Below are positions 1-25,679 of a stretch of DNA of 64,000 nt, one piece after another. Below the pieces are notes generated by a model. The model saw only the letters and a list, made by a program, of their open reading frames with translations. It was not told where the DNA came from and ran no database searches. The first letter of the stretch is position 1. Each line of letters opens with the position of its first letter. Source of the stretch: Rhodospirillaceae bacterium. Lineage in GTDB: Bacteria > Pseudomonadota > Alphaproteobacteria > SHVZ01. The stretch spans positions 47,097 to 111,096 of the forward strand of contig JAEULB010000159.1 in NCBI GenBank assembly GCA_016792585.1, given 5' to 3'. The translations under genes and the position numbers were made by a program.

Positions 1-1
1 C

Positions 2-211
2 CAGGGCCTCGACGCGCCGGTCGAAGGCGAGACGCCGAGCCCGCTCGATCCGCCGAAGGGCTGTCCCTTCCACACCCGCTGCCCGCGCAAGGTAGGCACG
101 ATCTGCGAGGCCGCGCGTCCGCCAGAGCAGGTGACGCCCGCCGGCCATCGCATGGCCTGCCACATCCCGATGGCCGATCTCGCCCGCGTCCAGGAGAAAG
201 AGCTGACATGA
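2..211 (+). CDS. Dpp/Opp-type ABC transporter ATP-binding protein, C-terminal fragment (5' end outside window)
   Basis: Frame-2 translation ends ...GCPFHTRCPRKVGTICEAARPPEQVTPAGHRMACHIPMADLARVQEKELT*. This is the Cys/His-rich C-terminal tail typical of DppF/OppF ATPases. The stop overlaps the next start (ATGA at 208-211). Confidence 0.75.
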   Translation, partial: QGLDAPVEGETPSPLDPPKGCPFHTRCPRKVGTICEAARPPEQVTPAGHRMACHIPMADLARVQEKELT

Positions 212-1917
212 TTCAGAGCCAGATGGTCGCGACCCGCACCGAGGTCGCGGGCACGCGCGGTGTCGTCACCGGCGGGCATCCGGCCGAGGCCGCGGCCGGC
301 GTGGCAATGATCGAGGCCGGCGGCAATGCGATCGATGCCGTCGTCGCCGCCGCGTTCGTAGGATTCGTCGTCGAGCCGGCTTCGTGCGGCATCGGCGGCT
401 ACGGCCACCTCGCGGTCTGGCTCGGCAAGGAAAAGCGCTTCGTCACCTTCGACCACTATGTCCGCGCGCCGGGTGCGGCACGACCCGACATGTTCGAGAT
501 CGATCGCACCAAGCCGAACAAGTACTACGGCTTCCCCTACACGGTCGGGATGAAGGCCGAGCAGGGTCCGCTGGCGCCGGCGGTGCCGGGCGCCGTCGCG
601 GGCCTGTGCGATGCGCACCGCATGTTCGGCCGGCTGCCGCTGGCCAAGGTGCTGGAGCCGGCGATCGCCGAGGCCGAAGCCGGCATCGAGGTCACCTGGC
701 AGCTGCTGCTGCCGATCTCCGAGCGCCTCGCCGCGATCCAGGCATTGCCGGCGACCGCCGACTGGCTGCTGCGCAACAACCTGCCGCCGAAGGCCGCGGG
801 CCAGCTCGCCGGCGGCGGCGACCGTCTCGACGGCAAGGATCTCGCGAAGACGCTCCGCCGCATCGCCGAGAAGGGTGCGGCCGGCTTCTACGAAGGGCCG
901 GTCGCCGAGGCGATCGAGCGCCATGTGACCGGCCAGGGCGGCATCCTGACCGCCGCCGATCTCGCGACATACAAGACCCGCATCCTGGAAGAGAAGCCGA
1001 CCCGCTATCGCGGCCTCAACTGCAACACCTGCTACGACCAGGTGACCTACGAGGCGCTCAACATCCTCGAATGCTTCGACCTCAAGGCCCTCGGCAAGGA
1101 CAGCCTCGCCTTCCGCCATCTGATCGCCGAGGCGCTCGCCTGCGGCTTCATCGACAGCATGACGCATTACGGCGACCCGGACTTCGAGCGGGCACCGGTC
1201 GAAGGCCTCGCCAGCCCCGAGTTCGGGAAGATGCGCGCCCAGCAGCTCCGCATGGACCGCGCCCTGCCGCGTCCGGTCGCCGCCGCCGATCCCTGGCCCT
1301 ACGACAACTCGGCCGAGAGGCCGAAGAAGATCGCCAACGAGCCGGGCATCGCCAAGCTCGCCGGCACCAGCCAGATGGCCTCGGCCGATGCCGAGGGGAA
1401 CGTCTGCGCCTTGATCACCAGCCTCACCAGCGGCTTCGGATCGCTGATGATCGTTCCCGGTACCGGGGTAATCCTCAACAACTCGATGCAGAACTTCGAC
1501 CCGCGGCCCGACCAGGCGAACCGCATCAAGCCGGGCAAGATGCCGATCTTCGCCGCCCCTTCGCTGGTCGCCGAGAAGGACGGCCGCGCCGTCTTCGCCG
1601 GCTGCGGCTCGGGCGGCTACCGGATCACCACGGGCGTGCTGCACGCCTTCCTCTACGCGACCGAGTTCGGGATGGGCCCGCAGGCGGCGGTCGATGCGCC
1701 GCGGATCCACTGCCAGGGCCAGGAGACCTATGTCGACGGCCGCATTCCGCAGGAGGTGCGCGACGGTCTCGCGGCGATGGGCCACAAGGTCGTGGTCCAG
1801 ACCGAGTCCCCCGGCCTCAACGCCTTTGGCCGTGTGAACGCAATCACCGTCGCCAAGGACGGCTCGATGCGCGCCGGTTCGGGCCCGGCCTGGGCCTCCG
1901 CCGCGGCCGCGTGCTGA
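208..1917 (+). CDS. gamma-glutamyltransferase family protein (Ntn hydrolase), paralog 1
   Basis: 569-aa ORF with GGNAIDAVVAAAF, nucleophile region LAG-TSQMASADAEGNVCALITSL and GSGGYRI...DAPRIH. No N-terminal signal peptide is visible. Confidence 0.85.
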   Translation: MIQSQMVATRTEVAGTRGVVTGGHPAEAAAGVAMIEAGGNAIDAVVAAAFVGFVVEPASCGIGGYGHLAVWLGKEKRFVTFDHYVRAPGAARPDMFEIDRTKPNKYYGFPYTVGMKAEQGPLAPAVPGAVAGLCDAHRMFGRLPLAKVLEPAIAEAEAGIEVTWQLLLPISERLAAIQALPATADWLLRNNLPPKAAGQLAGGGDRLDGKDLAKTLRRIAEKGAAGFYEGPVAEAIERHVTGQGGILTAADLATYKTRILEEKPTRYRGLNCNTCYDQVTYEALNILECFDLKALGKDSLAFRHLIAEALACGFIDSMTHYGDPDFERAPVEGLASPEFGKMRAQQLRMDRALPRPVAAADPWPYDNSAERPKKIANEPGIAKLAGTSQMASADAEGNVCALITSLTSGFGSLMIVPGTGVILNNSMQNFDPRPDQANRIKPGKMPIFAAPSLVAEKDGRAVFAGCGSGGYRITTGVLHAFLYATEFGMGPQAAVDAPRIHCQGQETYVDGRIPQEVRDGLAAMGHKVVVQTESPGLNAFGRVNAITVAKDGSMRAGSGPAWASAAAAC

Positions 1918-1942
1918 GGTGATGAGGAGAAGTGACTTCCTA

Positions 1943-1972
1943 CCCCCACTCCCGCCGAAGGCGGGGGAGGGT
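1943..1972. repeat. REP-like imperfect GC hairpin (CCCCACTCCCGCC-GAA-GGCGGGGGAGGG)
   Basis: Inverted repeat read directly between the two GGT genes. It shares the CTCCCGC...GCGGGGGAGGG core with the element at 45944-46094. Confidence 0.4.
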
Positions 1973-1993
1973 TCCGATGGAAGCGGGTCGGCC

Positions 1994-3667
1994 ATGAGGC
2001 CCGGCTCGGTCATCCTCGGCCGGACGCCGATCAGCGGTACCAAGGGCGCCGTCGCCTGCGGGCACCAGACAGCGGCCGATGTCGGCGTCGAGATCATCCG
2101 CCAGGGCGGCAATGCGGTGGATGCGGCGATCGCCGGCGCCTTCGCCTCCTTCGTCGTCGAGCCGCAGATGTGCGGGATCGGCGGGCATGGCCGGATGTCG
2201 GTCTATCTCGCGAAGACCGATAAGGCCGTCGGCATCGACCACTTCATCCGGGCGCCCAAGGCGGCGACGCCGGAGATGTACACGCGGGCTCTCGCCAAGT
2301 GGCGCAACGCCGGCTGGGGCGGCGTCGAGGGCGCGATCAACACCACGGGCCACCTCTCGGTCGGAATCCCCGGCACCATCGCCGGCCTCTGGGAGGCGCA
2401 TCGCCTCTTCGCCAAGCTGCCGTGGAAGTCGTTGGTCGGCCCCGCGATCGAGCTTGCCCGCGCCGGCGTCGTCGCCGATCCGAGGCTGACCGCCTCGATC
2501 GCCGGCCGGACGGTCGAGATCCGCCAGTATGCCGAGGCGGCGAAGTGGCTGCTGCCTGACGACGCGCCGCCCCGCCCGGCCAATGCCGGCGGCGCTTTCC
2601 ACCGCTTCGACTTCTCCGACATGGCCCGGACGCTGGAGACCATCGCCGAGAAAGGCGCCGCCGCCTTCTATGACGGCCGGCTCGCCGCCGCGATCGACCG
2701 TGAGATGCAGTCCGCCGGCGGCCTGCTGACGTCAGAGGACCTCGCCGGCTACAAGCCCGACACTTTCCTTCAGCCCTGGCACGACTACCGCGGACGCGAC
2801 TACGTCACCTGCGGCGACCTTATCTATGTCGAGGCCCTCAACATCCTCGAGCGCTTCGACCTGGGATCGCTCGACCCGCACGGGGCCGAGGTCCGGCACC
2901 TAGTCGCCGAGGCCCTGGCCCAGTCCTTCGCCGACAACTTCGCCCATGCCGCCGACCCGAGGCACCTGAAGGCGCCGCTCGAGGGTCTGGCCAGCAAGGC
3001 CTTCGCCGCCGAGCAGGCGGCGCTTATCCGGACCGAAAAGGCGCGCACCAAGGTCGAGCCGGGCAACCCGTGGCCGCACCAGGGACCGACGCCGTCGGTC
3101 CCGCCGCCGCCCTTCGAGGGCACGACCCAGATCGTCGCCGCCGACGGCGACGGCAACATGGCGAGCCTGATCACCAGCCTCGGCAGCGCTTTCGGCTCGC
3201 TGGTCATGATCCCTGGAACCGGGGTCTTCCTCGGCAACGCCATGCAGTGGTTCGACCCGCGCCCTGGCCAGGCCAACTCGGTCGGCCCCGGACGCATGCC
3301 CCTTTATGCCGCCCCGGTCGCGATCTTCCGCGAAGGCGGCCGATCGATCGGTGGGATCGCCGGCTCCGGCGGCTATCGCATCCTCTCGGCAATTCTAATC
3401 TTAACACTCAATTATCTTAACCATCTATTTGATCCACAACAATCTATCGACCTTCCGCGAATTCACACGGAGGGTGGCGACCTCGAGGTCGACAGCCGCA
3501 CCTCCCCGGCCGCCATCGATCGCTTGAAAGCCCTCGGCCACCGGGTCCGGCTGGTCGACGGCGTCGGCCTGCCGACCGCCTTCGGCCGCCCGTCTGCGGT
3601 GTGGCGGACGGCCGACGGCCTGGTTCCCGCCAGCGACGCGCGCTCCGGCGGCGTCGCCGCCTTCTGA
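1994..3667 (+). CDS. gamma-glutamyltransferase family protein, paralog 2
   Basis: From ORF 1919-3667. I moved the start to ATG 1994 (MRPGSVILGR...) because 1943-1972 is a REP-like hairpin. Motifs GGNAVDAAIAGAF, EG-TTQIVAADGDGNMASLITSL and GSGGYRI...LPRIH. No signal peptide. Confidence 0.8.
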   Translation: MRPGSVILGRTPISGTKGAVACGHQTAADVGVEIIRQGGNAVDAAIAGAFASFVVEPQMCGIGGHGRMSVYLAKTDKAVGIDHFIRAPKAATPEMYTRALAKWRNAGWGGVEGAINTTGHLSVGIPGTIAGLWEAHRLFAKLPWKSLVGPAIELARAGVVADPRLTASIAGRTVEIRQYAEAAKWLLPDDAPPRPANAGGAFHRFDFSDMARTLETIAEKGAAAFYDGRLAAAIDREMQSAGGLLTSEDLAGYKPDTFLQPWHDYRGRDYVTCGDLIYVEALNILERFDLGSLDPHGAEVRHLVAEALAQSFADNFAHAADPRHLKAPLEGLASKAFAAEQAALIRTEKARTKVEPGNPWPHQGPTPSVPPPPFEGTTQIVAADGDGNMASLITSLGSAFGSLVMIPGTGVFLGNAMQWFDPRPGQANSVGPGRMPLYAAPVAIFREGGRSIGGIAGSGGYRILSAILILTLNYLNHLFDPQQSIDLPRIHTEGGDLEVDSRTSPAAIDRLKALGHRVRLVDGVGLPTAFGRPSAVWRTADGLVPASDARSGGVAAF

Positions 3668-3744
3668 CCGATGCCGGTCGCTTTGCGGCAGGTACGGACC
3701 CTGTCCGCGACGTGAGATGATCCACCGCTTCCCAGAGGAATGAG

Positions 3745-5091
3745 ATGTCCCTTCCCGCCAAAGCCAAATACGTCGTCATCGGCGCCGGTGTTCACGGCCT
3801 ATCGACCGCCTATCACCTGGCCGAGAAGCTGGAGGCGACCGGCAAGGGCTCGGGCAAGGACATCGTGATCCTGGACAAGACCGGCATCGCCGCCGGCGCC
3901 TCGGGCATCGCCTGCGGGGTCATCCGCAACAACTACTTCCAGCCGGCGATGCGCGAGCTGATGGCCGAGTGCGTGTCGGTCTGGGAGTCGGACCCCAAAG
4001 CCTTCTCCTACCACCCCGTAGGCTACATGCAGATCTCTCCTGAAGTGATGCATGAGAATGTCGGGCAGATCGCCAAGCAGCAGAAAGATATCGGCTACGA
4101 CTCTGTTTTCATTGAGGGCAAGGCCGACTGCACCAAGTACATGAAGGGCCTGTTCGACGACTGGCAGGCCAAGGGCATCACCTCGGTCCTGCACGAGAAG
4201 AAGGGCGGCTACGCCAACAACCGGGCGTCCATGTACGGGCTCGCCAAGAAGGCTGAGGCGAACGGTGTCCAGATCGTGGCGCCGACCAAGGTCACCGGCT
4301 TCAAGTTCGCGTCCAACTCGACGGCGGTCTCGGCGGTCGAGACCGACCGCGGCACGATCGAGTGCGACTTCGTGGTGGTCGGCGTCGGCCCCTGGATCAA
4401 CCAGGTCTGGAAGATGCTTGACCTGCCCAAGACCGTCGACATCAAGGGCCGCGACGGCAAGGTCCACAAGGCCGTCGGCATGTGGACCTACTGGTGCCTG
4501 GAGGAAGGCACGCTCGGCGTCGATCCCAAGTATGGCCTCATGAACGACGGCAAGATGGGCCCGGTCATGCACGTCGACACCGACGCGCCGTTGCACTCGG
4601 ACGAGGATGGCTCCCTCATCACCGACAAGCTCTGGGGCATCTACTACAAGCCCGACTTCAACTTCGACGGCATCCAGGGCGGCGCCATGCCGTACAAGGT
4701 CGAGACCCCGGTAGATGAGGTGAAGATCGACCCTTACGGCCCTGACTCACCTGAGTTCATTGTCGACGCCAACTTCGCGCACATGTTCACCTCGGCCCTC
4801 GCCTTCTGCCAGAAGCGCTACTCGGGCCAGGCGCACAAGTGGAAGCACGAGCCGTCTGGCGGGCTGGGCTGCTTCACCCCGGACAGCTTCCCGGTCTTCG
4901 ACGTCTTCCGCGACAACGTCTATGTGCTGGCCGACTCGAACCACGGGTACAAGATGATCGCGGTCGGCAAGCTCGCAGCCGGCGAGATCGTCAGCGGCAC
5001 CAAGAGCAAGCTGCTCGAGCCCTTCCGGATCTCGCGCTTCCCCGAGGGCAAGCTGCACCCGGTCTCCAACAGCCCCTTCCCCTGGAGCTGA
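3745..5091 (+). CDS. FAD-dependent oxidoreductase (DAO / sarcosine-oxidase-beta-like)
   Basis: 448-aa ORF with N-terminal dinucleotide-binding motif KYVVIGAGVHGLSTAYHLA and C-terminal SNHGYKM typical of the DAO family. Confidence 0.8.
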   Translation: MSLPAKAKYVVIGAGVHGLSTAYHLAEKLEATGKGSGKDIVILDKTGIAAGASGIACGVIRNNYFQPAMRELMAECVSVWESDPKAFSYHPVGYMQISPEVMHENVGQIAKQQKDIGYDSVFIEGKADCTKYMKGLFDDWQAKGITSVLHEKKGGYANNRASMYGLAKKAEANGVQIVAPTKVTGFKFASNSTAVSAVETDRGTIECDFVVVGVGPWINQVWKMLDLPKTVDIKGRDGKVHKAVGMWTYWCLEEGTLGVDPKYGLMNDGKMGPVMHVDTDAPLHSDEDGSLITDKLWGIYYKPDFNFDGIQGGAMPYKVETPVDEVKIDPYGPDSPEFIVDANFAHMFTSALAFCQKRYSGQAHKWKHEPSGGLGCFTPDSFPVFDVFRDNVYVLADSNHGYKMIAVGKLAAGEIVSGTKSKLLEPFRISRFPEGKLHPVSNSPFPWS

Positions 5092-5094
5092 CCC

Positions 5095-6516
5095 ATGCCC
5101 GCGCCGATGGATTTCATCCACAAGCTCAAGTTCGACGACCTTCCGGCGAAGGTGGTCGAGCAGGCCAAGCTCTGCCTCGTGGACCTCATCGGCGCGGCGG
5201 CAGCCGGCAGCGAGACCGCGATGTCGCGGATCATCCGCGACCACGCGGTCGAGACCTTCGGGGCGCGCAAGAACGCCGTCCGCCTGATGCTGGACGGCCG
5301 CAAGGTCGGCCCCGCCGGCGCCGCGATGGCCGGCGGCATCACCATCGACGCCTTCGACTCCCATGACGGCCACGTGCTGACCAAGGGCCATGCGGGCGTC
5401 GCGATCCTGCCGACCCTGCTGGCCCTGGCCGACCCGCTGAAGAAGGTCGCCGGCCGCGAATTCCTGACGAGCCTGGTGATCGGCTACGAGATCGCGATCC
5501 GCGCCGGCATCGCCACCCATCGGACGGCGAAGGACTATCACACCTCCGGGTCCTGGAACTCGCTCGGCGCCGCCGCGGTCGTGGCGCGCTGGATGAAGCT
5601 CTCCCCGGCGCTAACCCGGGAGGCCCTCGGCATCGCCGAGTATCATGGCCCCCGCAGCCAGATGATGCGCTGCATCGACTTCCCGACCATGGTGAAGGAC
5701 GGCTCCGGCTGGGGTGCCATGGCCGGCGTCAGCGCGGCACTGCTGGCGAAGGCCGGTTTCACCGGCGCTCCGGCCCTGGTCTGGGAGGGCGCCGACGTCG
5801 CCGATCTCTGGCGCGACCTCGGCAAGCGCTGGCGGATCATGGAGATGTACTTCAAGCCCTACCCGGTCTGCCGCTGGGCCCAGCCGCCGATCACCGCCAG
5901 CCTCGGCCTGCTCAAGAAGCACGGCATCAAGGGCGATGAGGTGACCCAGATCGAGGTCTCGACCTTCCACAACGCCGTCCGGCTCGCGACCCGGACGCCG
6001 AAGTCGACCGAGGAGGCGCAGTACAGCCTGCCCTTCCCGGTCGCCGCCGCGATCGTTCACGGCAAGGTCACCGCCCGCGAAGTCGACGGCAAGGGCCTGA
6101 CCGATCCCCGTGTGCTCAAGCTCGCCCGCGGCATGAAGCTGACCGAGGACCTGTCGCTGACCGCCGAGTTCCCGGCCCGCCGCATCGCCCGCGTCGCCTT
6201 GACCATCAAGGACGGCCGTGTGCTCAAGTCCGATCTCGTCGAGGCGCTCGGCGATCCGGAGCGGCCACTGGGCGCGGCCGGCATCGTCGCCAAGTACCGC
6301 GAGACAGCCGAGGCCGTGCTCGGCAAGGCCCGCACCGAGAAGATCTTGGCTCAGGCGATGGCGATGGACGGAGCGCGAGCCGATGCCCGCGCGCTGGTCG
6401 ACCTGGTGCTGGCGCCGGTGAAGGTGCAGAAGCCGGCGACGACGAAGCGCCGCGCGGCGGGCCGGCCGAAGACGCGCGCCAATGGCAGCGTCCAGGCCCT
6501 CGCCGCCGACGACTGA
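5095..6516 (+). CDS. MmgE/PrpD family protein (2-methylcitrate dehydratase-like) with basic C-terminal tail
   Basis: 473-aa ORF starting 4 nt after the previous stop. The opening FIHKLKFDDLPAKVVEQAKLCLVDLIGAAAAG is typical of MmgE/PrpD. The tail reads KVQKPATTKRRAAGRPKTRANG. Confidence 0.8.
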   Translation: MPAPMDFIHKLKFDDLPAKVVEQAKLCLVDLIGAAAAGSETAMSRIIRDHAVETFGARKNAVRLMLDGRKVGPAGAAMAGGITIDAFDSHDGHVLTKGHAGVAILPTLLALADPLKKVAGREFLTSLVIGYEIAIRAGIATHRTAKDYHTSGSWNSLGAAAVVARWMKLSPALTREALGIAEYHGPRSQMMRCIDFPTMVKDGSGWGAMAGVSAALLAKAGFTGAPALVWEGADVADLWRDLGKRWRIMEMYFKPYPVCRWAQPPITASLGLLKKHGIKGDEVTQIEVSTFHNAVRLATRTPKSTEEAQYSLPFPVAAAIVHGKVTAREVDGKGLTDPRVLKLARGMKLTEDLSLTAEFPARRIARVALTIKDGRVLKSDLVEALGDPERPLGAAGIVAKYRETAEAVLGKARTEKILAQAMAMDGARADARALVDLVLAPVKVQKPATTKRRAAGRPKTRANGSVQALAADD

Positions 6517-6535
6517 TCCGCTTCGAGGCGCCCGG

Positions 6536-6691
6536 CTATTCGGCCGGCGCGCCCGCCGGAAGATTCGCCGTTCCCTGTCGCTCGATCAGTTTGTCGCGCT
6601 CGACCATCCAGCCGCGGAAGATGACCACCATCCCGAGCATCACCAGGACGGTGAAGATCATGATCATGATCGGCAGGAATACCTCATGCAT
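6536..6691 (-). CDS. small hydrophobic protein, 51 aa (below the ORF-track cutoff)
   Basis: My translation is MHEVFLPIMIMIFTVLVMLGMVVIFRGWMVERDKLIERQGTANLPAGAPAE*. It has one predicted TM helix and a G-rich RBS-like AGGGGG a few nt upstream. It lies 88 nt downstream of the ABC ATPase on the same strand. Confidence 0.35.
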   Translation of the reverse strand: MHEVFLPIMIMIFTVLVMLGMVVIFRGWMVERDKLIERQGTANLPAGAPAE

Positions 6692-6779
6692 GTCAGCCCC
6701 CTGAAATTCTTCAGCAAAAGAAGGATTTCAGAGTTGGCCGTGGTCAGCATTGATTCAGGTCAAATTTGCGGAGAACCGC

Positions 6780-8495
6780 CTAGTTCACGTAGCGGTGCCG
6801 GGCGTGGATGCGGCGCTCGCGCGGATCGGGGCGCGGCACGGCTGAGAGCAGTGCCTTCGTGTAGCCGTGAACAGGGTCGTTGCAGACCTGCTCGGCATCG
6901 CCGGTCTCGACCACCTTGCCGCGATACATCACCGCGACCCGGTCGCAGATGTAGCGGATGACGCTGATGTCGTGGCTGACGAAGACGTAGGCGAGCTTGA
7001 GCTCGTCCTGGAGCTGCAGCATCAGGTCGAGCATCTGGGCACGGAGGGAGACGTCGAGGGCCGAGGTCGCCTCGTCCGCGACGATCAGGCGCGGGCTCAA
7101 GGCCAGCGCGCGAGCGATGCCGATGCGCTGGCGCTGGCCGCCGGAGAAGGCGTGCGGGTAGCGCTCGGCCCAGTCCGGATTGAGCCCGACGCGCTTCAAG
7201 AGTGCGGCGACCCGGTCGTGCAGCTCCGAGCCCTCGGCGATGCCGTTCACCAGCAACGGCTCGCCGATGATCTGGCCGACGGTCATGCGCGGATTGAGCG
7301 AGGCGAACGGATCCTGGAAGATCATGCGCATCTCGCGCCGGCACTCCCGCAGCCTGTCCTTCTCCAGGCTGGCCACGTCGTCGACGCTGCCGTCGGGACG
7401 GCGATAGAGGATCTGCCCGGCAGTCGGCTCGTAGACGCGAAGCAGGCAGCGGCCGAGCGTGGTCTTGCCCGAGCCGGACTCGCCGACGATACCGAGCGTC
7501 TCGCCCGCGCGCACGACGATGTCGACGTCGTCGACGGCGCGGACATGGTCGACCACCTTGCGGAAGAAACCCTTCCGGATCGGGAAGTGCATCTTGAGCC
7601 CGCGCACGTCGAGCAATGGCGGCTCCTCGGCGGAGACCGGCTCGCGCGCGGCGCGGATCTGGGAAGGCCGCTCCAGCTTCAGCACGTTGCCGAGCAGCAT
7701 CTGGGTATAGGGATCCTGGGGGGCGTGGAAGATCTGCTCGACCGGGCCGCGCTCGACCACCTTTCCCTGGTACATGACCACGACCTCGTCGGCGATCTCG
7801 GCGACGACGCCCATGTCGTGGGTGATGAACATCACCGCCATGCCGCGCTCGGCCTGGAGGCGCTTCATCAGGTCGAGGATCTCGGCCTGGGTGGTGACAT
7901 CCAGAGCCGTGGTCGGCTCGTCGGCGATCAGCACCTGCGGATTGCAGGCCAAGGCCATCGCGATCATCGCCCGCTGCCGCATGCCGCCCGAGTACTCGAA
8001 GGTGTAGCGCTCGATCGCACGCTCCGGATTCGGAATCTCGACTGCGCGCAGAAGCTCGATCGCCCGCGCCGTCGCCTCCTTCTTGCTCATGCCGAGATGG
8101 AGCGTCAGCACCTCGGTGATCTGGTTGCCGATCGTGTGCACCGGCGACAGCGACGACATCGGCTCCTGGAAGATCATCGCGATCTCGGCGCCGCGCACCG
8201 ACCGGATCTCGCGCCCGCGCGGGTTCAGGGAAGCGAGGTCGACCGATGTACCGTTCGTGCGGTTGAAGACGATCGAGCCCTTCTCCACGCGGCCGGGCGG
8301 ATCGACGATCTGCAGGATCGAGCGGGCAGTCACGCTCTTGCCCGACCCCGACTCGCCGACGACGCAGACGGTCTTGCCGCGCGAGAGGTCGAAAGAGACG
8401 CCGTCGACCGCCTTCACCACGCCGCCGCGCACGGGGAAGTGGGTGTGGAGGTCGCGGATCGAGATGATCGGCTGGCCAGGGGAAGCAGTAGTCAT
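6780..8495 (-). CDS. ABC transporter ATP-binding protein, fused double ATPase (DppD/DppF-like)
   Basis: 571 aa with two Walker A sites (GESGSGKS twice), two signature motifs ([16 protein letters not shown]) and two Walker B sites (LIADEPT, IVADEAT). Confidence 0.9.
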
Positions 8496-9643
8496 TTGTT
8501 ATACGGATCGGCGGCGTCACGAAGCCCGTCGCCGAGGAAGTTGAGGGCAAGGACGGCGATCACCACCGCCGCCCCCGGCGCGAACAGCCAGGGCGCGGTC
8601 ACGATCGAGCGGATGTTCTGCGCCTCCCGCAGCAGCACGCCCCAGGAGATCACCGGCGGCTGCAGGCCGAGGCCAAGGAACGAAAGGGCCGTCTCGGCGA
8701 GGATCATCGCCGGGATCGCCAGCGTGACGCTGGCGACGATGTGGCTCATGAAGCTCGGCAGCATGTGGCGGAAGATGATGCGCATCTCGGACGCGCCGTC
8801 GAGGCGCGCCGCGGTCACGAAGTCCTCGGTGCGAAGCGAGAGGAAGCGGCCCCGGACGACGCGCGCGAGCTGGGCCCAGCCGATCAGCGAAAGGATCAGC
8901 GTGATCATGAAGTAGTGCAGCAGCGCCGGCCAGTTCTGCGGCAAGGCGGCGGCGAGCGCCAGCCAGATCGGGATCGTCGGCAGCGCCAGGATGAACTCGA
9001 TCACGCGCTGGATCACGAAATCGATCCGGCCGCCGTAATAGCCGGAGATGCCGCCGAGCAGGATGCCGATCAGCAGCGACATCGCCACGCCGACGAGGCC
9101 GATCGACATCGAGATCTGGCACCCCTTGACGATCCGGCTCCACACGTCGCGACCGAGGCGGTCGGAGCCCAGGAAGAAGATCTGCTGGCGCGGGTCCGTG
9201 CTGCCGATCAGATGGGTCTTCGAAGGGATCAGGCCGAAAAGGTGATAAGCGTAGCCCTCGGCGAAGAAGCGAAGGTCGATCCTCCGCGTCGGATCCTCGG
9301 TGTAGATCGGCGCCAGCGTGACCGGGTCGCGCTTCAGCACCATCTGCTTGACGTGCGGGCTGAAGACCGTGCTGCCGTCAGGCAGGGTCGCGAACAGGTG
9401 GAGAGGCTGCGGCGGATGGTAGACCGCACGCGCATTCTGCTGGCTCGGATCGGTGGTGGCGAAGAAATCCGGCACCGCCGCGACGATGTAGATCATCAGC
9501 GTGACGATGGCGCCGAGCATCGCCAGCTTGTGCTTGCGGAACGACCACCAGACCAGCTGCCACTGGGACGCGGTGGTGAAGCGCGAGGCGGCGGTCGGCG
9601 GGGTCGGCTGCTCCGGTGGCGCGGTCTCGGTCTTGGCGGTCAT
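8492..9643 (-). CDS. ABC transporter permease (DppC/OppC-like)
   Basis: 383 aa, multi-TM, with an EAA-loop-like region AARLDGASEMRIIFRHMLP. ATGA overlap with the ATPase gene. Confidence 0.85.
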   Translation of the reverse strand: MTAKTETAPPEQPTPPTAASRFTTASQWQLVWWSFRKHKLAMLGAIVTLMIYIVAAVPDFFATTDPSQQNARAVYHPPQPLHLFATLPDGSTVFSPHVKQMVLKRDPVTLAPIYTEDPTRRIDLRFFAEGYAYHLFGLIPSKTHLIGSTDPRQQIFFLGSDRLGRDVWSRIVKGCQISMSIGLVGVAMSLLIGILLGGISGYYGGRIDFVIQRVIEFILALPTIPIWLALAAALPQNWPALLHYFMITLILSLIGWAQLARVVRGRFLSLRTEDFVTAARLDGASEMRIIFRHMLPSFMSHIVASVTLAIPAMILAETALSFLGLGLQPPVISWGVLLREAQNIRSIVTAPWLFAPGAAVVIAVLALNFLGDGLRDAADPYNK

Positions 9644-10629
9644 CAGTCGAACCGGATGCGCGGGTCGACCAGCGCCAGCAGGATGTCACTGAGCAGCGTG
9701 CCGACGAGGGTCAGCGTGCACATCAGCAGCACGAACGCGCCAGCGAGGTACATGTCCTGGCTCATCAGCGACTGCAGCAGCAGCGGTCCTGCGATCGGCA
9801 GGCTCAGCACCACGGCGACGATAAGCGCGCCGGAGATCAGGTTCGGCAGTAGCCAGCCGATGGTTGAGATGAACGGATTGATCGCGACCCTGACCGGATA
9901 CTTGAGCAGCAGACGGAACTCGGAAAGTCCCTTGGCGCGGGCGGTCGTGACGTAGGGTCGGTGCAGCTCGTCCAGCATGTTGGCGCGCATGATGCGGATC
10001 AGGCTGGCGGTGCCGTTGGTGGCAAGGATGACCACCGGCACCCACAGGTGCTCGACCAGGTTCTGAACCTTCCCCCAGCTCCAGGGCGCGGTCTGGTATT
10101 CCGGCGAGAACAGCCCACCGACATCGGCCCCGAACAGCACGACGGCGACGTACATCAGAACCAACGCCAGCAGGAAGGACGGAATCGCGAGCCCGAGGAA
10201 GCCGAGGAAGGTGAAGAAGTAGTCGCCGATCGAGTACTGGCGCACCGCCGAATAGACACCGATCGGGAACGCCAGCGCCCAGGTCATCAGCAGGGTCGAC
10301 GAGGTGACGACCAGGGTCAGCGCCATGCGCTCCCAGATCAGCTCGGAGACCGGCTGCTGCCACTCGAAGCTGAGGCCGAAATCGCCGCGCGTGACGATCC
10401 CGACGATCCACTTGAAGTATTGGACGATGAACGGCTGGTCGAGCCCGAAGCGCGTGCGCAGCTCGGCCGCCGCGGTGCGGTCGACGATCTCGTTCGAGGC
10501 CGCCAGGGTCGCAATGTAGGTGGTGACGTAGTCGCCGGGCGGAAGCTGGATCAGGACGAACGCAAGAAAGCTGACGGCGAACAGCGACGGAACCATCCAC
10601 AACAGACGCTTAATGATGAAGCCCAGCAT
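9643..10629 (-). CDS. ABC transporter permease (DppB/OppB-like)
   Basis: 328 aa. The opening MLGFIIKRLLWMVPSLFAVSFLAFVLIQLPPGD is the typical DppB opening. 1-nt overlap with the next permease. Confidence 0.85.
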   Translation of the reverse strand: MLGFIIKRLLWMVPSLFAVSFLAFVLIQLPPGDYVTTYIATLAASNEIVDRTAAAELRTRFGLDQPFIVQYFKWIVGIVTRGDFGLSFEWQQPVSELIWERMALTLVVTSSTLLMTWALAFPIGVYSAVRQYSIGDYFFTFLGFLGLAIPSFLLALVLMYVAVVLFGADVGGLFSPEYQTAPWSWGKVQNLVEHLWVPVVILATNGTASLIRIMRANMLDELHRPYVTTARAKGLSEFRLLLKYPVRVAINPFISTIGWLLPNLISGALIVAVVLSLPIAGPLLLQSLMSQDMYLAGAFVLLMCTLTLVGTLLSDILLALVDPRIRFD

Positions 10630-10683
10630 CTAGGTGAAGTCCGGCGCGCCCCTCCCCGTCGGAACGGCGCGCCGGCAAGTCCT

Positions 10684-12642
10684 TTAGCTCGTGAAGAAGT
10701 ACTGCTGCGGCATCGACGGACCGGGATTCGGCCACGACCAGGCGCCGGGCATCTTGGCCGGAACGTTGCGGAGCCGGTTGTTGGCGATGCCGAACAGGTT
10801 CGGCGCGAGGCAGATGCCGATCGCATCGAAGGCGTCGGCGGCGAGATCGAGGATCTCCTTCATCAGCTCGCCCTGGCGCTTGACGTCGGAGATCGAACGC
10901 GCCTCGTCATAGAGCTTGGTGCGTCGCTTATGGTTCTCCGGCGGCTCGGCGCCTTCCTTGCCGTTGCTCGAGTACCAGACCGCCCACGGAATCGCGTAGC
11001 GCGAACCCTGCGGATGGATCGGCACCCAGTCGCGGGCGTCGATCAGCGGCTCGAGGCCGCCCGGCCCCTGCCAGACCGCGAAGTCGTGGTCGTTGTTGTC
11101 GCCGCGCGTGTAGTAGAGCGCGCGCTCGATCGTGTTGACCTTCATATCGACGCCGACCGCCGCCCAATGACGCTTGCACAGCTCGAGCGCGTCGACCTGG
11201 TCGGGATAGAGGGTCGGGATCACGTCGACGGCGAAGAACAGCTTCTGGCCGTCCGGGCGCAGTCGGAAGTTCTGGCCGTCGCGCTTCGAGAACCCGAGCT
11301 TGTCGAGCATCTCGTTCGACTTCTTAGGATCGAACTCGGTGTACTGGCGTGCGAACTTCGCATGATACCAGGGATGCGTCGGACGCGGCCCGAACTGCCA
11401 CGGCTCCGACTGCCCGAGATAGACGATGTCGATGATCTCCTGGCGGTTGATCGCGTGGGAGAGCGCGATGCGGAAGTCCTTGTTGGCGAAGATCGCCCTG
11501 AGCGCCGGGTCCTTGTGGGTGGCGTTGGGGTAGATCGACATCTGCTGGCTGTTGGCGTTGATCGTCTCGAACAGGCGGTAGTTCCCGCGCTGTGCCGACT
11601 GCGCCACCGTCGGCTTGTTCTGGAGCGTGTCGATGTGGCGCTCCTGGATGTCGATCTTGCCCGACACCACGTCGAGCATCAGCGACTCGACGTCCTGGGC
11701 GATGCTGAAGGTGATTCCGTCGACGTAGGGCAGCTGGTTGCCCTCGGTATCGACCTGCCAGAAATACGGATTCCGCTTCAGAACGACGCGGGTGGCGCCT
11801 CCGGTATAGGGCTCGGCGATGGTCCACGGATCGAGCGTCGGCTTCTCGGTGTTGCCCCAGCGCGAGGGGATCTCGATGTCGCCGCAGCGGAGCCGAAACA
11901 GGGCGCCCCAGTCCGGCACGTTCGCGGCCTTGGCGAGGTCGGCGACGTTGTTCGCATACTTCGGATGGAATTTCGAGCAGTAGTGCTTCGGGAAAAGCGT
12001 CGGATGCTGTCCCAACGGCGTCGCCATCTGCTGAAGGAACATGCCGTAGGGGCCGTCGAAGGTGAACTTGACGGTGACATCATCGACCTTCGAGACCTTG
12101 CACATCTTGCCGTTGATCGTCCAAAGCGCCGGCGGCGACTTGTAGAGCTCGGTGTTGGCGAGGCAGTCCTCGAACACGAAGACGATGTCGTCGGCGGTGA
12201 ACGGATGGCCGTCCGACCACTTCATGCCCGGGCGCAGATGGAAGGTGAACTCGTTGTTGCCGGCGTTCACGTCCCACTTGTGCGCGACGCCCGGCAGCAC
12301 GTCGGTGAACTCGAGGTTCCAGCGGGTCAGGCCCTGGTTGCCGACCATGCGCAGGATGCCGTTGTGGTCGGCCGAGCCGCGGAGCCCGCGGCGGATCTGG
12401 CCGCCGTAACGGCCGACGCGCTCGACCGGCTGAACCACCAGCGGGATCTTCGGCAGGCGCTCGGCGAGCGGCGGCAGCTTCTTGTCGGCGACCGCCTGAA
12501 CGAACTCCGGCGCTTCCTTGGCGGCGCCCTGAGCCAAGGCGCTCCACGACACCAGGCTGGTCGCTGCCATGCCGCCGGCGCCGGCCATCAGTTGGCGGCG
12601 AGTCAGCTTCAAGCCGCCGGAATTGTTGCGTTTGCGTGCCAT
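10684..12642 (-). CDS. ABC transporter substrate-binding protein, family 5, with Tat-type signal
   Basis: Real start is MARKRNNSGGLKLTRRQLMAGAGGMAATSLVSWSALAQG (twin-Arg signal) with a GGAGGAAACC RBS upstream. The 915-aa track ORF is a read-through N-terminal extension. The protein is 652 aa. Confidence 0.8.
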   Translation of the reverse strand: MARKRNNSGGLKLTRRQLMAGAGGMAATSLVSWSALAQGAAKEAPEFVQAVADKKLPPLAERLPKIPLVVQPVERVGRYGGQIRRGLRGSADHNGILRMVGNQGLTRWNLEFTDVLPGVAHKWDVNAGNNEFTFHLRPGMKWSDGHPFTADDIVFVFEDCLANTELYKSPPALWTINGKMCKVSKVDDVTVKFTFDGPYGMFLQQMATPLGQHPTLFPKHYCSKFHPKYANNVADLAKAANVPDWGALFRLRCGDIEIPSRWGNTEKPTLDPWTIAEPYTGGATRVVLKRNPYFWQVDTEGNQLPYVDGITFSIAQDVESLMLDVVSGKIDIQERHIDTLQNKPTVAQSAQRGNYRLFETINANSQQMSIYPNATHKDPALRAIFANKDFRIALSHAINRQEIIDIVYLGQSEPWQFGPRPTHPWYHAKFARQYTEFDPKKSNEMLDKLGFSKRDGQNFRLRPDGQKLFFAVDVIPTLYPDQVDALELCKRHWAAVGVDMKVNTIERALYYTRGDNNDHDFAVWQGPGGLEPLIDARDWVPIHPQGSRYAIPWAVWYSSNGKEGAEPPENHKRRTKLYDEARSISDVKRQGELMKEILDLAADAFDAIGICLAPNLFGIANNRLRNVPAKMPGAWSWPNPGPSMPQQYFFTS

Positions 12643-15228: not shown

Positions 15229-15957
15229 ATGCTCGATATCTCTCGCACCCTTCCCGCCGACAGCGAGACGCGCCAGAGCGACATCGCCTTCGAGATGGTG
15301 AAGGCCGATATCGTCGCCTGCCGGCTGGCTCCGGGCACGAGCGTGACCGAAGCCGAGCTCGCCGAGCGTTATCAGCTGGGCAAGGCGCCGATCCGGATGG
15401 CTCTGACCCGGCTCGCCGACCGCGACTGGCTGCGCGCGCTTCCCCGGCGCGGCTATCTGGTGAAGCCGGTCGCGATGCGCGACGTCACCGAGATCTTCGA
15501 TCTTCGCCTGATCATCGAGCCGGCCGCGGCGCGCGCCGCCGCCGGCCGCGTCGAGGTCAGCCGCCTCGAGCATCTGGACGCCGTCTGCCGTGCCGGCTTC
15601 GTGCCGGGCGACGCCGCCAGCGAAGCGACCTACCTTCAGGCGCACCGTCAGTTCCACTTCGCGATCGTGCTGGCAGCCGGCAATCGGCGCCTCGGCCGCA
15701 GCTTCGAGCCGCTGTGGGACGAGACCGAGCGCGTGCTGCACCACACCGGCCTGCTTCGCCGTGACGCCGAGCCGCTTCGCCACGACCACAAGCCGCTGAT
15801 CGAGGCGCTCCGCGCCGGCGACGGCGCCGCCGCCGAATCCGAGATGCGCGAGGAGGTCCAGCACCTCAGCCGCGCGATCATGGAGACCGCGCTCAAGACC
15901 GCGATCCTCCCTGCCCCGTCCGCCGAGACGGAGCGGGCCGAGGACGCGCGCTGGTGA
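15229..15957 (+). CDS. GntR family transcriptional regulator (FadR/FCD type)
   Basis: 242 aa with a winged-helix segment LAPGTSVTEAELAERYQLGKAPIRMALTRLA followed by an FCD-like helical domain. Confidence 0.85.
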   Translation: MLDISRTLPADSETRQSDIAFEMVKADIVACRLAPGTSVTEAELAERYQLGKAPIRMALTRLADRDWLRALPRRGYLVKPVAMRDVTEIFDLRLIIEPAAARAAAGRVEVSRLEHLDAVCRAGFVPGDAASEATYLQAHRQFHFAIVLAAGNRRLGRSFEPLWDETERVLHHTGLLRRDAEPLRHDHKPLIEALRAGDGAAAESEMREEVQHLSRAIMETALKTAILPAPSAETERAEDARW

Positions 15958-16009
15958 CTACCTGCGCCGGCAGGGGGCCGGCACGTCGTTCCAACCTGGG
16001 AGGCTCAAC

Positions 16010-17509
16010 ATGAACCGATGGTCGATATGGCTCAGGACCGCCGCGCTCGCGACGGTGCTCGCCGCCGGACAAGCCTACGCCGCCAAGGATGTGCTGGTTA
16101 TCGATCTCGCCAGCGAGCCCGCCTCGCTCGACCCGCATGTCCAGTGGAACCCGGACAGCTACTGGGTCTACCGCAACATCTTCGACAACGTCGTGACGCG
16201 CGACGACGACGGCAAGATCATCCCGCAGGTCGCGACCTCGTGGAAAGCGATCGACGACAAGACGATCGAGTTCGCGCTCCGCAGCGACATCACGTTCCAT
16301 GACGGCACGGCGATGACCGCCGACGACGTCGCCTTCACCGTCAAGCGCATCACCGATCCCGCCTTCAAGAGCCCGCAGCTCGACCAGTTCAACAAGATCG
16401 TCGCGACCGAGGTGGTCAATCCGACGACGATCCGCTTCAGGACCGACAGCGTCTATCCGGTGCTCATGGCGCAGCTGACCAAGCTCAGCGTCGTGCCGAA
16501 GGCGCATGTCGAGAAGGTCGGCAACGAAGCCTTCAACCAGGGCCCGGTCGGCAGCGGCGCCTACAAGTTCCAGTCGATCCAGCGCGGCGTGAAGACGACA
16601 CTGGTGCGCAACGACGCCTATTGGGGCCAGAAGGGCGCCTTCCCGACGGTCGAGTTCCGGCCGGTGCCTGACCAGGCGACCCGCATGGCCGATCTCCGCT
16701 CCGGCAAGGCCGACCTGATCGTCACGATCAACGCCGACCACGCCAAGGAGCTGAAGGCCGATGCCAATACCAAGGTGCTGAGCGTGCTCAGCGAGCGCGT
16801 CGCCTACTTCATGCTGAACTCGCTGACCGGCCCGACCTCGGACCTCCGTGTCCGCCAGGCGATCTCGCACGCGATCGACCGCCAGGGCATCATCGACGGC
16901 CTGATGGGCGGCTACGACAAGCCGGTCGCGACCATGCTGTCGCCCGTCCATGTCGGCTTCTCCGACGGCTTCAAGGGCCCGGTCTACGACCCCAACAAGG
17001 CGAAGGAGCTCTTGAAGGCCGTCGGCGCCCCAGCGCAAGGCACCTTCACCCTCTTCACCTCGCCGGTCTTCGACCAGCGCATCGTCGTCGCGATCCAGCA
17101 GATGCTGCGCGACGTCGGGCTCAAGGTCGAGATCACCTCCAGCGACTTCGCCAACTGGCTGAAGCGCGCCCAGGCCTCGCCGCAGGAGTTCGGCGAGGTC
17201 ACCTTCAGCCGCTGGTCCTGCGGCTGCCAGGACGCCGACGGCATCCTCTTCCCGCTCTACCACTCGAAGAGCCAGTGGGCGAAGTCGAACAACCCGGCGA
17301 TGGACGCCGAGCTCGATGCCGGCCGCTCAACCCTCGACGTGGCGAAGCGCACCCAGCACTACAAGAAGGCGAACGAGCTCGCCGAGGCGACCGTCCCGCT
17401 GGTGCCGCTCTACCAGGCCGCCATCCTCTACGGCGCCCGCAAGGAGCTGCGCTGGAAGCCGACGCCGAACGAGAGCTTCTTCATCAACCGCATCGGCTGG
17501 GACGGCTGA
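16010..17509 (+). CDS. ABC transporter substrate-binding protein, family 5 (no adjacent permease)
   Basis: 499 aa. Signal peptide MNRWSIWLRTAALATVLAAGQAYAA followed by a typical SBP_bac_5 sequence. Confidence 0.85.
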   Translation: MNRWSIWLRTAALATVLAAGQAYAAKDVLVIDLASEPASLDPHVQWNPDSYWVYRNIFDNVVTRDDDGKIIPQVATSWKAIDDKTIEFALRSDITFHDGTAMTADDVAFTVKRITDPAFKSPQLDQFNKIVATEVVNPTTIRFRTDSVYPVLMAQLTKLSVVPKAHVEKVGNEAFNQGPVGSGAYKFQSIQRGVKTTLVRNDAYWGQKGAFPTVEFRPVPDQATRMADLRSGKADLIVTINADHAKELKADANTKVLSVLSERVAYFMLNSLTGPTSDLRVRQAISHAIDRQGIIDGLMGGYDKPVATMLSPVHVGFSDGFKGPVYDPNKAKELLKAVGAPAQGTFTLFTSPVFDQRIVVAIQQMLRDVGLKVEITSSDFANWLKRAQASPQEFGEVTFSRWSCGCQDADGILFPLYHSKSQWAKSNNPAMDAELDAGRSTLDVAKRTQHYKKANELAEATVPLVPLYQAAILYGARKELRWKPTPNESFFINRIGWDG

Positions 17510-17522
17510 TCGGTCTATGATC

Positions 17523-17562
17523 GGGCGAGGGCGCCGTCGGGTGCCCTCGCCCTTTTCCTTTT
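17523..17562 (+). terminator. rho-independent terminator/attenuator
   Basis: GGGCGAGGGC-N10-GCCCTCGCCC followed by TTTTCCTTTT, 14 nt after the SBP stop. Confidence 0.6.
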
Positions 17563-17575
17563 CCGGGAATCCCAC

Positions 17576-25598: not shown

Positions 25599-25679
25599 GA
25601 TTTCGGTCAAGCCCGGCTTCGCTTGACGCAATCGGCGGCGCCTCGCCACGCTCGGTCTGGGAAATTCCTGGAGGGAACG

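Follow-up and report, generated by a model that had tools for sequence, protein, structure and literature searches.

The first 6,516 positions of a 64,000-nucleotide (nt) stretch of contig JAEULB010000159.1, from a freshwater alphaproteobacterium assigned to the Rhodospirillaceae, hold the distal part of a predicted catabolic operon. The whole stretch, at its full length, is referred to here as the window (base composition, 68% GC). On comparative evidence the operon appears to be real and conserved: a peptide-type importer is joined in it to two paralogous proteins with the gamma-glutamyltransferase (GGT) fold, named here GGT1 and GGT2, to a 448-amino-acid (aa) flavin adenine dinucleotide (FAD)-dependent oxidoreductase, named FAD448, and to an MmgE/PrpD-family protein, referred to as PrpD-like. 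The parts come from known families, and the operon is of an importer-linked catabolic type with three uncharacterized enzyme subfamilies. Our preferred reading, which we hold tentatively, is that an N-methylated, amide-linked acidic compound, and not glutathione-like gamma-glutamyl peptides, is taken up and broken down in the cytoplasm by its products. The first-pass annotation of the window, made from the letters alone, knew of no established pathway with this gene set. None was found in the literature searched, which contained no description of the gene combination, of MmgE proteins with betaine or MttB genes, or of the FAD gene in gmaS clusters as parts of such a system.

Gene arrangement and its conservation in relatives

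The window opens on the plus strand, in frame 2, with the C-terminal 69 codons and stop codon of a peptide-type (Dpp/Opp/Gsi-like) ATP-binding cassette (ABC) ATPase (positions 2 to 211; PF08352 oligo_HPY and TIGR01727), the last residues of which are ...ACHIPMADLARVQEKELT. Four genes follow on the same strand: GGT1 (208 to 1917; 569 aa; PF01019, 3.6e-107) and GGT2 (1994 to 3667; 557 aa; PF01019, 6.9e-108), both predicted to be cytoplasmic, lid-less N-terminal nucleophile (Ntn) amidohydrolases of the GGT fold; FAD448 (3745 to 5091; DAO superfamily, PF01266); and PrpD-like (5095 to 6516; 473 aa; PF03972, 8.5e-46, and PF19305, 4.9e-35). The first-pass annotation had described this codirectional order, and all of its coordinates agreed with ours, including the ATGA at which the ATPase stop (TGA, 209 to 211) overlaps the GGT1 start (ATG, 208 to 210) and the gaps between the successive genes from GGT1 onward, which are exactly 76, 77, and 3 nt. 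Operons often hold 4-base overlaps, and the one between the ATPase and GGT1 would be ordinary if taken alone; it counts because it is conserved in relatives. A crude consensus scan of the plus strand from 1 to 7000, in a host that may use other signals, gave no promoter-like or terminator-like site, and a single transcript is therefore weakly supported.

Conserved gene order in relatives had been named in the first-pass annotation as a check on the operon, and such conservation was found. A scan for GGT1 with one genome per species yielded 35 loci, and neighborhoods were counted over 34 GGT1 loci (individual related loci carry L numbers here). The complete order recurs in L001, L002, L003, L005, L012, and L042. 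In 12 of the 34 loci, Actinomycetota among them, GGT1 is immediately preceded by the ATPase, and the 4-nt overlap is retained in 9 of those 12, down to a GGT1 identity of 65%. The GGT1-GGT2 tandem is present at about 11 loci. GGT1 also has a PrpD-like gene close by in three distant groups whose gene orders differ, namely, the Alphaproteobacteria (including L011, from a member of the Acetobacteraceae), the Gammaproteobacteria, and the Chloroflexi, where the PrpD-like gene of L015 (on the same contig as L065) stands directly upstream of GGT1. The gene arrangement is beyond chance. Among PLSDB plasmids, no homolog of GGT1 or FAD448 was found; only PrpD-like had homologs there.

Two gammaproteobacterial metagenome-assembled genomes (MAGs) show a variant of the neighborhood (L009, 3910 to 8149, and L010, 4905 to 9144). 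A TonB-dependent receptor and a protein with tetratricopeptide repeat and sulfotransferase regions lie between GGT1 (74% identity) and PrpD-like (53%), and a LysR regulator and a GGT2-like gene occupy the opposite strand. The same enzymes would thus have another uptake route in these organisms.

The upstream part of the operon lies outside the window and was recovered from two alphaproteobacterial MAGs (L001 and L002) in which GGT1 is 95% identical. Genes in relatives were called with a position-specific model, which was compared for L038 and L040 with the gene calls that the database gives. One strand of L001 and L002 carries a DJ-1/PfpI-AraC regulator and a family-5 substrate-binding protein (SBP) with a twin-arginine (TAT) signal; the opposite strand carries, in order, the genes for two permeases and for a fused double ATPase of 681 aa, then those for GGT1, GGT2, the FAD enzyme, and PrpD-like. 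The L001 SBP (SBP_bac_5) has the twin-arginine motif DRREFLRTATLLG, and the 681-aa ATPase has two ABC_tran and two oligo_HPY domains. The first-pass annotation had called the ATPase of the window DppF-like. The peptide type of the protein stands, but a standalone ATPase does not agree with the relatives: the tail in the window is 93% identical to the C terminus of the 681-aa protein of L001 and, since that homolog is a fused double ATPase, is most simply read as the end of the C-terminal half of a DppD-DppF-type fusion.

All of the parts of a Dpp/Opp/Gsi-type importer are thus present in L001 (the family-5 SBP with its TAT signal, two BPD_transp_1 permeases, and the oligo_HPY ATPase); the window itself holds only the oligo_HPY tail. 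The NCBIfam scores of the L001 proteins fell below the equivalog cutoffs for DppA, OppA, GsiB, and NikA. GsiA, GsiC, and GsiD were among the weaker matches of the importer, with all four Gsi components far under their cutoffs, and assignment as a GsiABCD or DppABCDF equivalog was rejected on these curated thresholds. The regulator of L001 combines PF01965 with PF12833, i.e., a DJ-1/PfpI-like sensor fused to an AraC helix-turn-helix domain. It scores 378 bits against NF052371 (GbdR), for which the cutoff is 480, and the next match, FtrA, reaches 156; we therefore assign it to the GbdR family at the family level and not as a GbdR equivalog. An AMP-ligase and two acyl-CoA dehydrogenases upstream of the L001 regulator were considered as a counterpart of the ligase and dehydrogenase set associated with PrpD-like elsewhere and were dropped, being only 22 to 37% identical.

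The junction between GGT1 and GGT2 differs among close relatives. In L001 to L004, which have no insertion there, the two genes share their stop and start codons in the overlap TGATG, whereas a GC-rich palindromic insertion, identified by comparison with relatives, lies precisely at the junction in the window (the 76-nt spacer at 1918 to 1993, plus strand), in L012 (about 9340 to 9421), and in L005 (about 11708 to 11852). An example of the palindrome is CTCCCGCC-GAAG-GCGGGGGAG; in L005 it reads CCCTCTCCC-ACC-GGGAGAGGG. The GGT2 start in the window is the ATG at 1994, its reading frame being already open from a GTG at 1919. The palindrome, which occurs once in the window, looks like a small element of the repetitive extragenic palindrome type that broke the translational coupling of GGT1 and GGT2. 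A role for the spacer hairpin as a regulatory structure was rejected, as its fold is no better than that of shuffled sequence (z = -0.64).

The acyl pocket of GGT1 and GGT2

GGT1 and GGT2 are 42% identical to each other, and their residues were mapped by alignment to Escherichia coli GGT (PDB 2e0w), the numbering of which is used here. The catalytic core of the fold is retained. The Thr nucleophile context noted in the first-pass annotation, AG-TSQ in GGT1 and EG-TTQ in GGT2, aligns with Thr391, and a GSGG motif aligns with the oxyanion Gly483-Gly484 in both proteins; position 409 is Ser, and a 10-residue segment of the lid loop is missing from both. The claimed absence of signal peptides also held up. 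Mature E. coli GGT aligns with the two proteins from their residues 12 to 16 onward, and because they start only about 15 residues ahead of the equivalent of the mature N terminus, there is no room for a signal peptide; no hydrophobic leader is present.

What has changed is the pocket that recognizes the gamma-glutamyl group. The six residues that recognize its alpha-carboxylate and alpha-amino groups in E. coli GGT, R114, N411, Q430, D433, S462, and S463, are replaced, respectively, by Tyr, Thr, Ser, Asn, Phe, and Ala in GGT1 and by Phe, Gly, Ala, Trp, Tyr, and Ala in GGT2. These replacements, together with the Thr and Gly-Gly features, are conserved throughout the respective subfamilies (35 GGT1-type and 13 GGT2-type sequences from several phyla). 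Position 411 is Thr, Gly, or Ser in GGT1-type proteins and Gly in GGT2-type proteins, position 430 is Ser or Ala in the former and Ala in the latter, and position 433 is Asn in 34 of 35 GGT1 orthologs and Trp in all 13 GGT2 orthologs. Because of this conservation, the pocket replacements are taken to define two subfamilies and not decay. In E. coli GGT, R114 binds the alpha-carboxylate, and both R114L and R114D are inactive; D433 and S462/S463 also have roles in gamma-glutamyl binding, and D433N abolishes transpeptidation and creates acylase activity on glutaryl-7-aminocephalosporanic acid (glutaryl-7-ACA), Asn being the residue found naturally at position 433 of class IV cephalosporin acylases (PMC8062742). 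As judged by alignment, GGT1 carries the Asn433 of glutaryl acylases, a residue that it has in common with the class IV enzymes; GGT2, in contrast, with Phe114, Trp433, and Tyr462, appears to have an aromatic pocket.

GGT1 and GGT2 score 312.8 and 299.7, respectively, against TIGR00066, both under the cutoff of 357.85, and a classical GGT function was rejected on this threshold together with the residue tests. In the PDB, the closest matches are to 4y23, 2nlz, and 2e0w, with 2nlz second best for GGT1; 2nlz and the oxamate amidohydrolase HpxW are likewise signal-less amidases and not periplasmic transpeptidases. In comparison with the canonical enzymes (E. coli Ggt and Bacillus licheniformis GGT), the window proteins share the PF01019 fold, the Thr nucleophile, and the Gly-Gly oxyanion hole, but they are without the signal peptide, the lid loop, and the gamma-glutamyl-binding residues, they occur as tandem paralogs, and GGT1 is translationally coupled to an ABC ATPase. 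We conclude from these sequence features that GGT1 and GGT2 are probably cytoplasmic Ntn amidohydrolases whose acyl group is not free gamma-glutamyl. A comparable operon is iaaA-gsiABCD of E. coli, in which the glutathione importer, a peptide-family ABC system with a fused double ATPase, is joined to an autoprocessing Ntn hydrolase for an unusual amide bond. That hydrolase, however, is of the asparaginase_2 family and not of the GGT fold, and genes for an FAD oxidase, a PrpD-like protein, and a GbdR regulator are all lacking from the E. coli operon.

It could be argued instead that glutathione or another gamma-glutamyl peptide or amide is imported by a Gsi-like transporter and that its gamma-glutamyl bond is cut by cytoplasmic GGTs. 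The Gsi-like architecture, with its fused double ATPase and its weak matches to GsiA, GsiC, and GsiD, is consistent with such a scheme, as is the retention of the fold, nucleophile, and oxyanion Gly-Gly. The nitrilase-type and GATase/C26-type hydrolase families, members of which replace the GGTs beside PrpD-like genes elsewhere (see below), include enzymes that cut gamma-glutamyl or 2-oxoglutaramoyl amides (Nit1, Nit2, and PuuD). However, the Gsi scores here are far under their cutoffs. Glutathione and classical gamma-glutamyl peptides are unlikely substrates because the recognition residues are replaced in both paralogs and throughout their subfamilies (R114L or R114D alone inactivates the E. 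coli enzyme), the lid loop is gone, and TIGR00066 scores fall short in both proteins; nor is it evident why the breakdown of glutathione would call for an FAD oxidase or a PrpD-like enzyme. We consider this explanation very improbable. The first-pass annotation had suggested import and intracellular breakdown of a gamma-glutamyl or amide-linked compound: the tight importer-linked unit and the predicted cytoplasmic location of the enzymes favor that scheme, and the replacement of the six recognition residues speaks against its gamma-glutamyl part.

A third GGT-family gene is present farther along the window (18376 to 19905; 509 aa; PF01019, 6e-97). It closes a plus-strand unit (15229 to 19905) that also comprises a GntR/FCD regulator, a 499-aa family-5 SBP, and a short-chain dehydrogenase. 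The pocket of its product (Ser114, Thr409, Leu411, Gly430, Trp433, Ala462, and Asn463) places it outside both the GGT1 and the GGT2 subfamilies.

The FAD448/PrpD-like module

PrpD-like has both Pfam domains of the MmgE/PrpD family, and the protein of the window is identical to one from a Rhodospirillaceae MAG. Its scores against the PrpD equivalogs are low (34.5 against a cutoff of 575 for NF006943 and 18.9 against 458 for TIGR02330), and its PDB matches are Bacillus subtilis "IRG1" (1.6e-21), iminodisuccinate (IDS) epimerase (6e-17), and cis-aconitate decarboxylase (CAD; 4e-16), with true PrpD at only 7e-5. The function of 2-methylcitrate dehydratase was rejected on these equivalog and PDB results, and no prpB or prpC gene is among those recognized in the window or in related loci, the gene families of which are annotated only in part. 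D88, H99, K201, and K254 are invariant among 13 homologs, and H149 is nearly so (at least 90%); they align with CAD D93, H103, K207, K272, and H159, respectively. CAD Thr97 aligns with an invariant Gly of PrpD-like, CAD His277 falls in a gap, and a Cys of PrpD-like that aligns with C259 is shared with IDS epimerase. The characterized MmgE/PrpD enzymes (2-methylcitrate dehydratase, cis-aconitate decarboxylase, iminodisuccinate epimerase, and methylsuccinate isomerase) all act on a C4 1,4-dicarboxylate backbone via an enolate that is held by these residues (PMC12290011, 2025). The retention of the dicarboxylate-binding Asp, His, His, Lys, and Lys suggests that PrpD-like belongs to an uncharacterized MmgE/PrpD subfamily that keeps the C4-dicarboxylate site. 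In comparison with the characterized members, it is distant (E values of 1e-21 to 1e-5), and amidase and N-methyl oxidase partners are new for the family.

Outside the clade of the window, FAD448 and PrpD-like appear to form a separate and widespread module that is tied to methylated-amine and betaine loci. PrpD-like homologs of 57 to 59% identity in Mesorhizobium amorphae, Hypericibacter adhaerens, and a Deferrisomatales MAG are neighbored by DAO proteins of 446 to 448 aa (66 to 73% identical to FAD448), GbdR-like regulators, and a hydrolase; the DAO and PrpD-like genes of Mesorhizobium and Hypericibacter are adjacent pairs at these same identities. The hydrolase differs by family, being either a class I GATase or a nitrilase-type CN_hydrolase. 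A metagenome scan added 80 PrpD-like loci to give 86 in total, and neighbors were counted within six genes of PrpD-like. The most frequent were a CN_hydrolase (24 of 86 loci), an OpuAC-type betaine SBP (23), FAD448 orthologs (21), an MttB-family methyltransferase (18), and an AraC-DJ1 regulator (16), followed by a GGT (12), a CocE/NonD hydrolase (10), a CoA ligase (9), an acyl-CoA dehydrogenase (8), and an enoyl-CoA hydratase (7). The hydrolase beside PrpD-like seems to have been replaced nonorthologously, since CN_hydrolase, GATase, CocE/NonD, or GGT proteins alternate in that place. The loci with the acyl-CoA dehydrogenase, CoA ligase, and enoyl-CoA hydratase (type A) resemble the cluster logic of the methylsuccinate pathway around (S)-(R)-methylsuccinate isomerase.

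The wider contexts of the module include Rieske demethylase pairs, sarcosine oxidase, folD/purU, MttB, and BHMT-like genes. Plasmid 1 of Paracoccus denitrificans PD1222 has a full example (PDEN_RS24310 to PDEN_RS24370), in which the genes of a betaine-type ABC system are grouped with those for a nitrilase-type hydrolase, an acyl-CoA dehydrogenase, a CoA ligase, and PrpD-like. Facing this group are genes for a GlxA regulator, two flavoproteins, and a Rieske oxygenase and its reductase, with purU, folD, and sarcosine oxidase genes nearby. The Chloroflexi operon of L015 combines GGT1 (62%) and PrpD-like (55%) with an OsmF-like betaine SBP, a BHMT-like methyltransferase, and an MSOX/MTOX-family oxidase. 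This oxidase passes the N-methyl-L-tryptophan oxidase/MSOX model (316.7 bits against a cutoff of 257), and it is therefore likely that another N-methyl oxidase fills the role of FAD448 in the Chloroflexi, by independent replacement.

The betaine, carnitine, and sarcosine catabolic systems regulated by GbdR, CdhR, and SouR are comparable in that a GbdR-family regulator likewise adjoins the operon in relatives of the window, and the OpuAC transporters, MttB homologs, Rieske demethylases, sarcosine oxidase, and folD/purU genes of betaine and MttB systems also stand beside the FAD448/PrpD-like module elsewhere. The present operon differs from those systems in that its regulator is under the GbdR cutoff, its importer is of the peptide type, and the locus has no demethylase gene. 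To our knowledge, no betaine pathway uses GGT-fold or PrpD-family enzymes.

A further arrangement (type C: L048, L052, L053, L057, L076, and L095) is a minimal one, with FAD448 divergent from PrpD-like and, downstream of PrpD-like, a gene for a 410-aa protein in which an alpha/beta hydrolase is fused to an OsmC-like peroxiredoxin domain; no transporter or regulator is nearby. The OsmC fusion is a hint that the flavoenzyme may be an oxidase that produces H2O2.

For FAD448 itself, known models cover the N-terminal FAD-binding half only (PF01266, residues 9 to 226), and the soxB score is 76.8 against a cutoff of 529. The family is highly conserved (72 to 80% identity over more than 120 clusters), and some members bear the JGI label methylglutamate dehydrogenase subunit A. 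Six long contigs were sampled for homologs. In four of these (L123, L125, L126, and L128), a FAD448 homolog of 73 to 76% identity is the first gene of a GntR-controlled gmaS-mgsABC operon, in which the DAO gene is followed by genes for a GmaS-like glutamine synthetase homolog, MgsA (GATase_6/7), MgsB (GXGXG), and MgsC (Glu_synthase); the other two have a GbdR-like regulator and a GATase near the homolog. In L123 (9001 to 15675), and similarly in L125, L126, and L128, the 445- to 447-aa DAO gene is followed by a gene for a conserved 130-aa protein of no known family.

The N-methylglutamate pathway (gmaS, mgsABC, and mgdABCD) provides a close comparison. The step left unfilled in these DAO-gmaS-mgsABC operons is the oxidation of N-methylglutamate, a SoxBDAG-like set being found beside the operon in only one of the four contigs, and the conserved DAO protein may be an unrecognized single-subunit N-methylglutamate oxidase. 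FAD448 differs from the known enzyme in that it is not a SoxB-type MgdA (24% identity to the SoxB-like gene of L123) and has no B, C, and D subunits adjacent. The protein of the window is 76% identical to the gmaS-linked homologs and 66 to 73% identical to the PrpD-linked ones, and because it is as close to the former as to the latter, one shared reaction may be argued for both groups.

The catabolism of opine-like compounds or aminopolycarboxylates, i.e., secondary-amine diacids such as succinamopine or iminodisuccinate-like molecules, would account for some of the same genes. The family-5 SBP would import the compound, a GGT-fold amidase would remove a side chain amide, the FAD enzyme would be an opine oxidase that cleaves the C-N bond, and PrpD-like would be an epimerase, as in iminodisuccinate degradation. 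IDS epimerase is indeed among the nearest solved relatives of PrpD-like (6e-17) and has the Cys at C259 in common with it; the PDB matches of the SBP include AgaA (agropinic acid) and AccA (agrocinopine), with opine/metal binders of the CntA type among its weak NCBIfam matches; and opine oxidase subunits belong to the DAO superfamily. These SBP similarities, however, are generic and far under the cutoffs, the FAD448 homologs sit in gmaS-mgsABC operons, and the GbdR-family regulator and the MttB, BHMT-like, Rieske demethylase, sarcosine oxidase, and folate one-carbon contexts point to N-methyl groups instead. An opine-like substrate is accordingly judged quite unlikely.

Proposed pathway and significance

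We propose that the genes at positions 1 to 6516 form the downstream end of a single catabolic operon. Its full order would be two permeases, the fused ATPase, GGT1, GGT2, the FAD enzyme, and PrpD-like, and it would be divergent from the genes for a TAT-exported family-5 SBP and a GbdR-family regulator, as in the relatives. The SBP-dependent importer would bring in a small peptide-like, amide-linked compound, the amide bond or bonds of which would be cleaved in the cytoplasm by GGT1 and GGT2. FAD448 would then oxidatively N-demethylate, or deaminate, an N-methyl acidic amino acid freed by this hydrolysis. PrpD-like would act as an epimerase, lyase, or dehydratase on a 2-substituted C4-dicarboxylate backbone of the aspartate or succinate type, and in doing so it would either supply one stereoisomer to the oxidase or process the acid product. 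The order suggested in the first-pass annotation, hydrolysis followed by oxidation and then dehydration or isomerization, and an order in which an epimerase precedes the oxidase are equally possible. In other lineages, the same core may be fed by betaine transporters, demethylases, and nonhomologous amidases. A possible lead for the amidase step, though not evidence for it, is an N-methyl-2-oxoglutaramate hydrolase (EC 3.5.1.36) that was reportedly described, along with the lactam of its substrate, in old work on Pseudomonas MA; in the literature searched, N-methyl-2-oxoglutaramate appeared only in metabolomics mentions.

Several observations weigh against this proposal. The five-gene order is confined to one clade, in which GGT1 is 86 to 95% identical, and among the 34 GGT1 loci, PrpD-like is present in only 9 and FAD448 in 5. 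The importer of this lineage is of the peptide type, while that of most other loci is of the OpuAC type, and no gmaS, mgs, or MttB gene is present in the window. The assignment of N-methylglutamate oxidation to FAD448 rests on gene context and on an automatic name given by one source, and N-methylglutamate is a C5 diacid, a poor fit to the C4 preference of the PrpD family. As all of the homologs available were more than 72% identical, an AlphaFold2 model of FAD448 came out with low confidence (mean pLDDT, 58.8; under 50 for the substrate domain) and was set aside. Finally, the operon could be a recent fusion of two functions, since the modules are mostly apart elsewhere.

Taken further, the last point would mean that two unlinked functions share one transcription unit, with the transporter, GGT1, and GGT2 handling an amide compound and FAD448 and PrpD-like handling methylated amines, without a common substrate. 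The modules are indeed separate in most loci, with transporter-GGT units that have neither FAD448 nor PrpD-like (L014, L017, L021, L023, and L032) and FAD448-PrpD-like pairs that have no GGT (L036, L038, L048, L053, L057, and others), and the complete order is limited to one clade. Against such a fusion, however, stand the proximity of GGT1 to PrpD-like in three distant groups with differing gene orders, the hydrolase of one family or another that nearly always accompanies PrpD-like, and the gaps of 77 and 3 nt and the absence of a terminator-like site in the scanned region. We regard this explanation as unlikely.

A more detailed version of the proposed catabolism of an N-methylated, amide-linked acidic compound can be put forward, although we consider it doubtful in its entirety. 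FAD448 and PrpD-like would constitute a widespread and unrecognized two-enzyme core of methylated-amine catabolism, in which PrpD-like would catalyze a reaction new to science as an epimerase or C-N lyase acting on an N-methyl (or N,N,N-trimethyl) aspartate- or succinate-type acid and FAD448 would be a single-subunit oxidase of N-methyl acidic amino acids that could also replace MgdABCD. GGT1 and GGT2 would found two new GGT-fold subfamilies, made up of cytoplasmic amidases for N-methylated or betaine-type amides, which the peptide-type importer would deliver here.

The remainder of the window is unusually dense in genes for amide hydrolases and peptide transporters, with at least four family-5 SBP genes (at 10684, 16010, 31850, and 33637) and three GGT-fold genes. 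A second complete peptide-type ABC system on the minus strand (6780 to 12588) encodes a 571-aa fused double ATPase, two permeases, and a 634-aa family-5 SBP; it converges on the end of the PrpD-like gene, and this synteny is kept in L001 to L003 and L043. An Ldh_2-family (malate/L-lactate dehydrogenase-like) gene on the plus strand is followed by two tandem amidase-signature paralogs of 496 and 500 aa (23011 to 27182). The minus strand from 19902 to 22879 carries a cluster that resembles the protocatechuate branch of the beta-ketoadipate pathway. It comprises genes for a CMD-family decarboxylase and a cycloisomerase-like protein (Lyase_1/ADSL_C) as well as two small genes for putative dioxygenase subunits, a reading suggested solely by the N-terminal sequences of their products.

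In lakes, oceans, and soils, methylated amines and betaines are major forms in which carbon and nitrogen are exchanged, and for several steps in their breakdown no enzyme is known. Carriers of the FAD448/PrpD-like module that can be cultivated include Paracoccus denitrificans PD1222, Hypericibacter adhaerens, and Mesorhizobium amorphae. If our reading is wrong, the operon would be another orphan catabolic operon built of ordinary enzyme families. If it is right, GGT1 and GGT2 would each represent a GGT-fold amidase class of new specificity, both classes being wrongly labeled gamma-glutamyltransferases by automatic annotation, PrpD-like would add a fifth function to the short list of characterized MmgE/PrpD enzymes, and an abundant and very conserved flavoenzyme would become a possible single-subunit N-methylglutamate oxidase.

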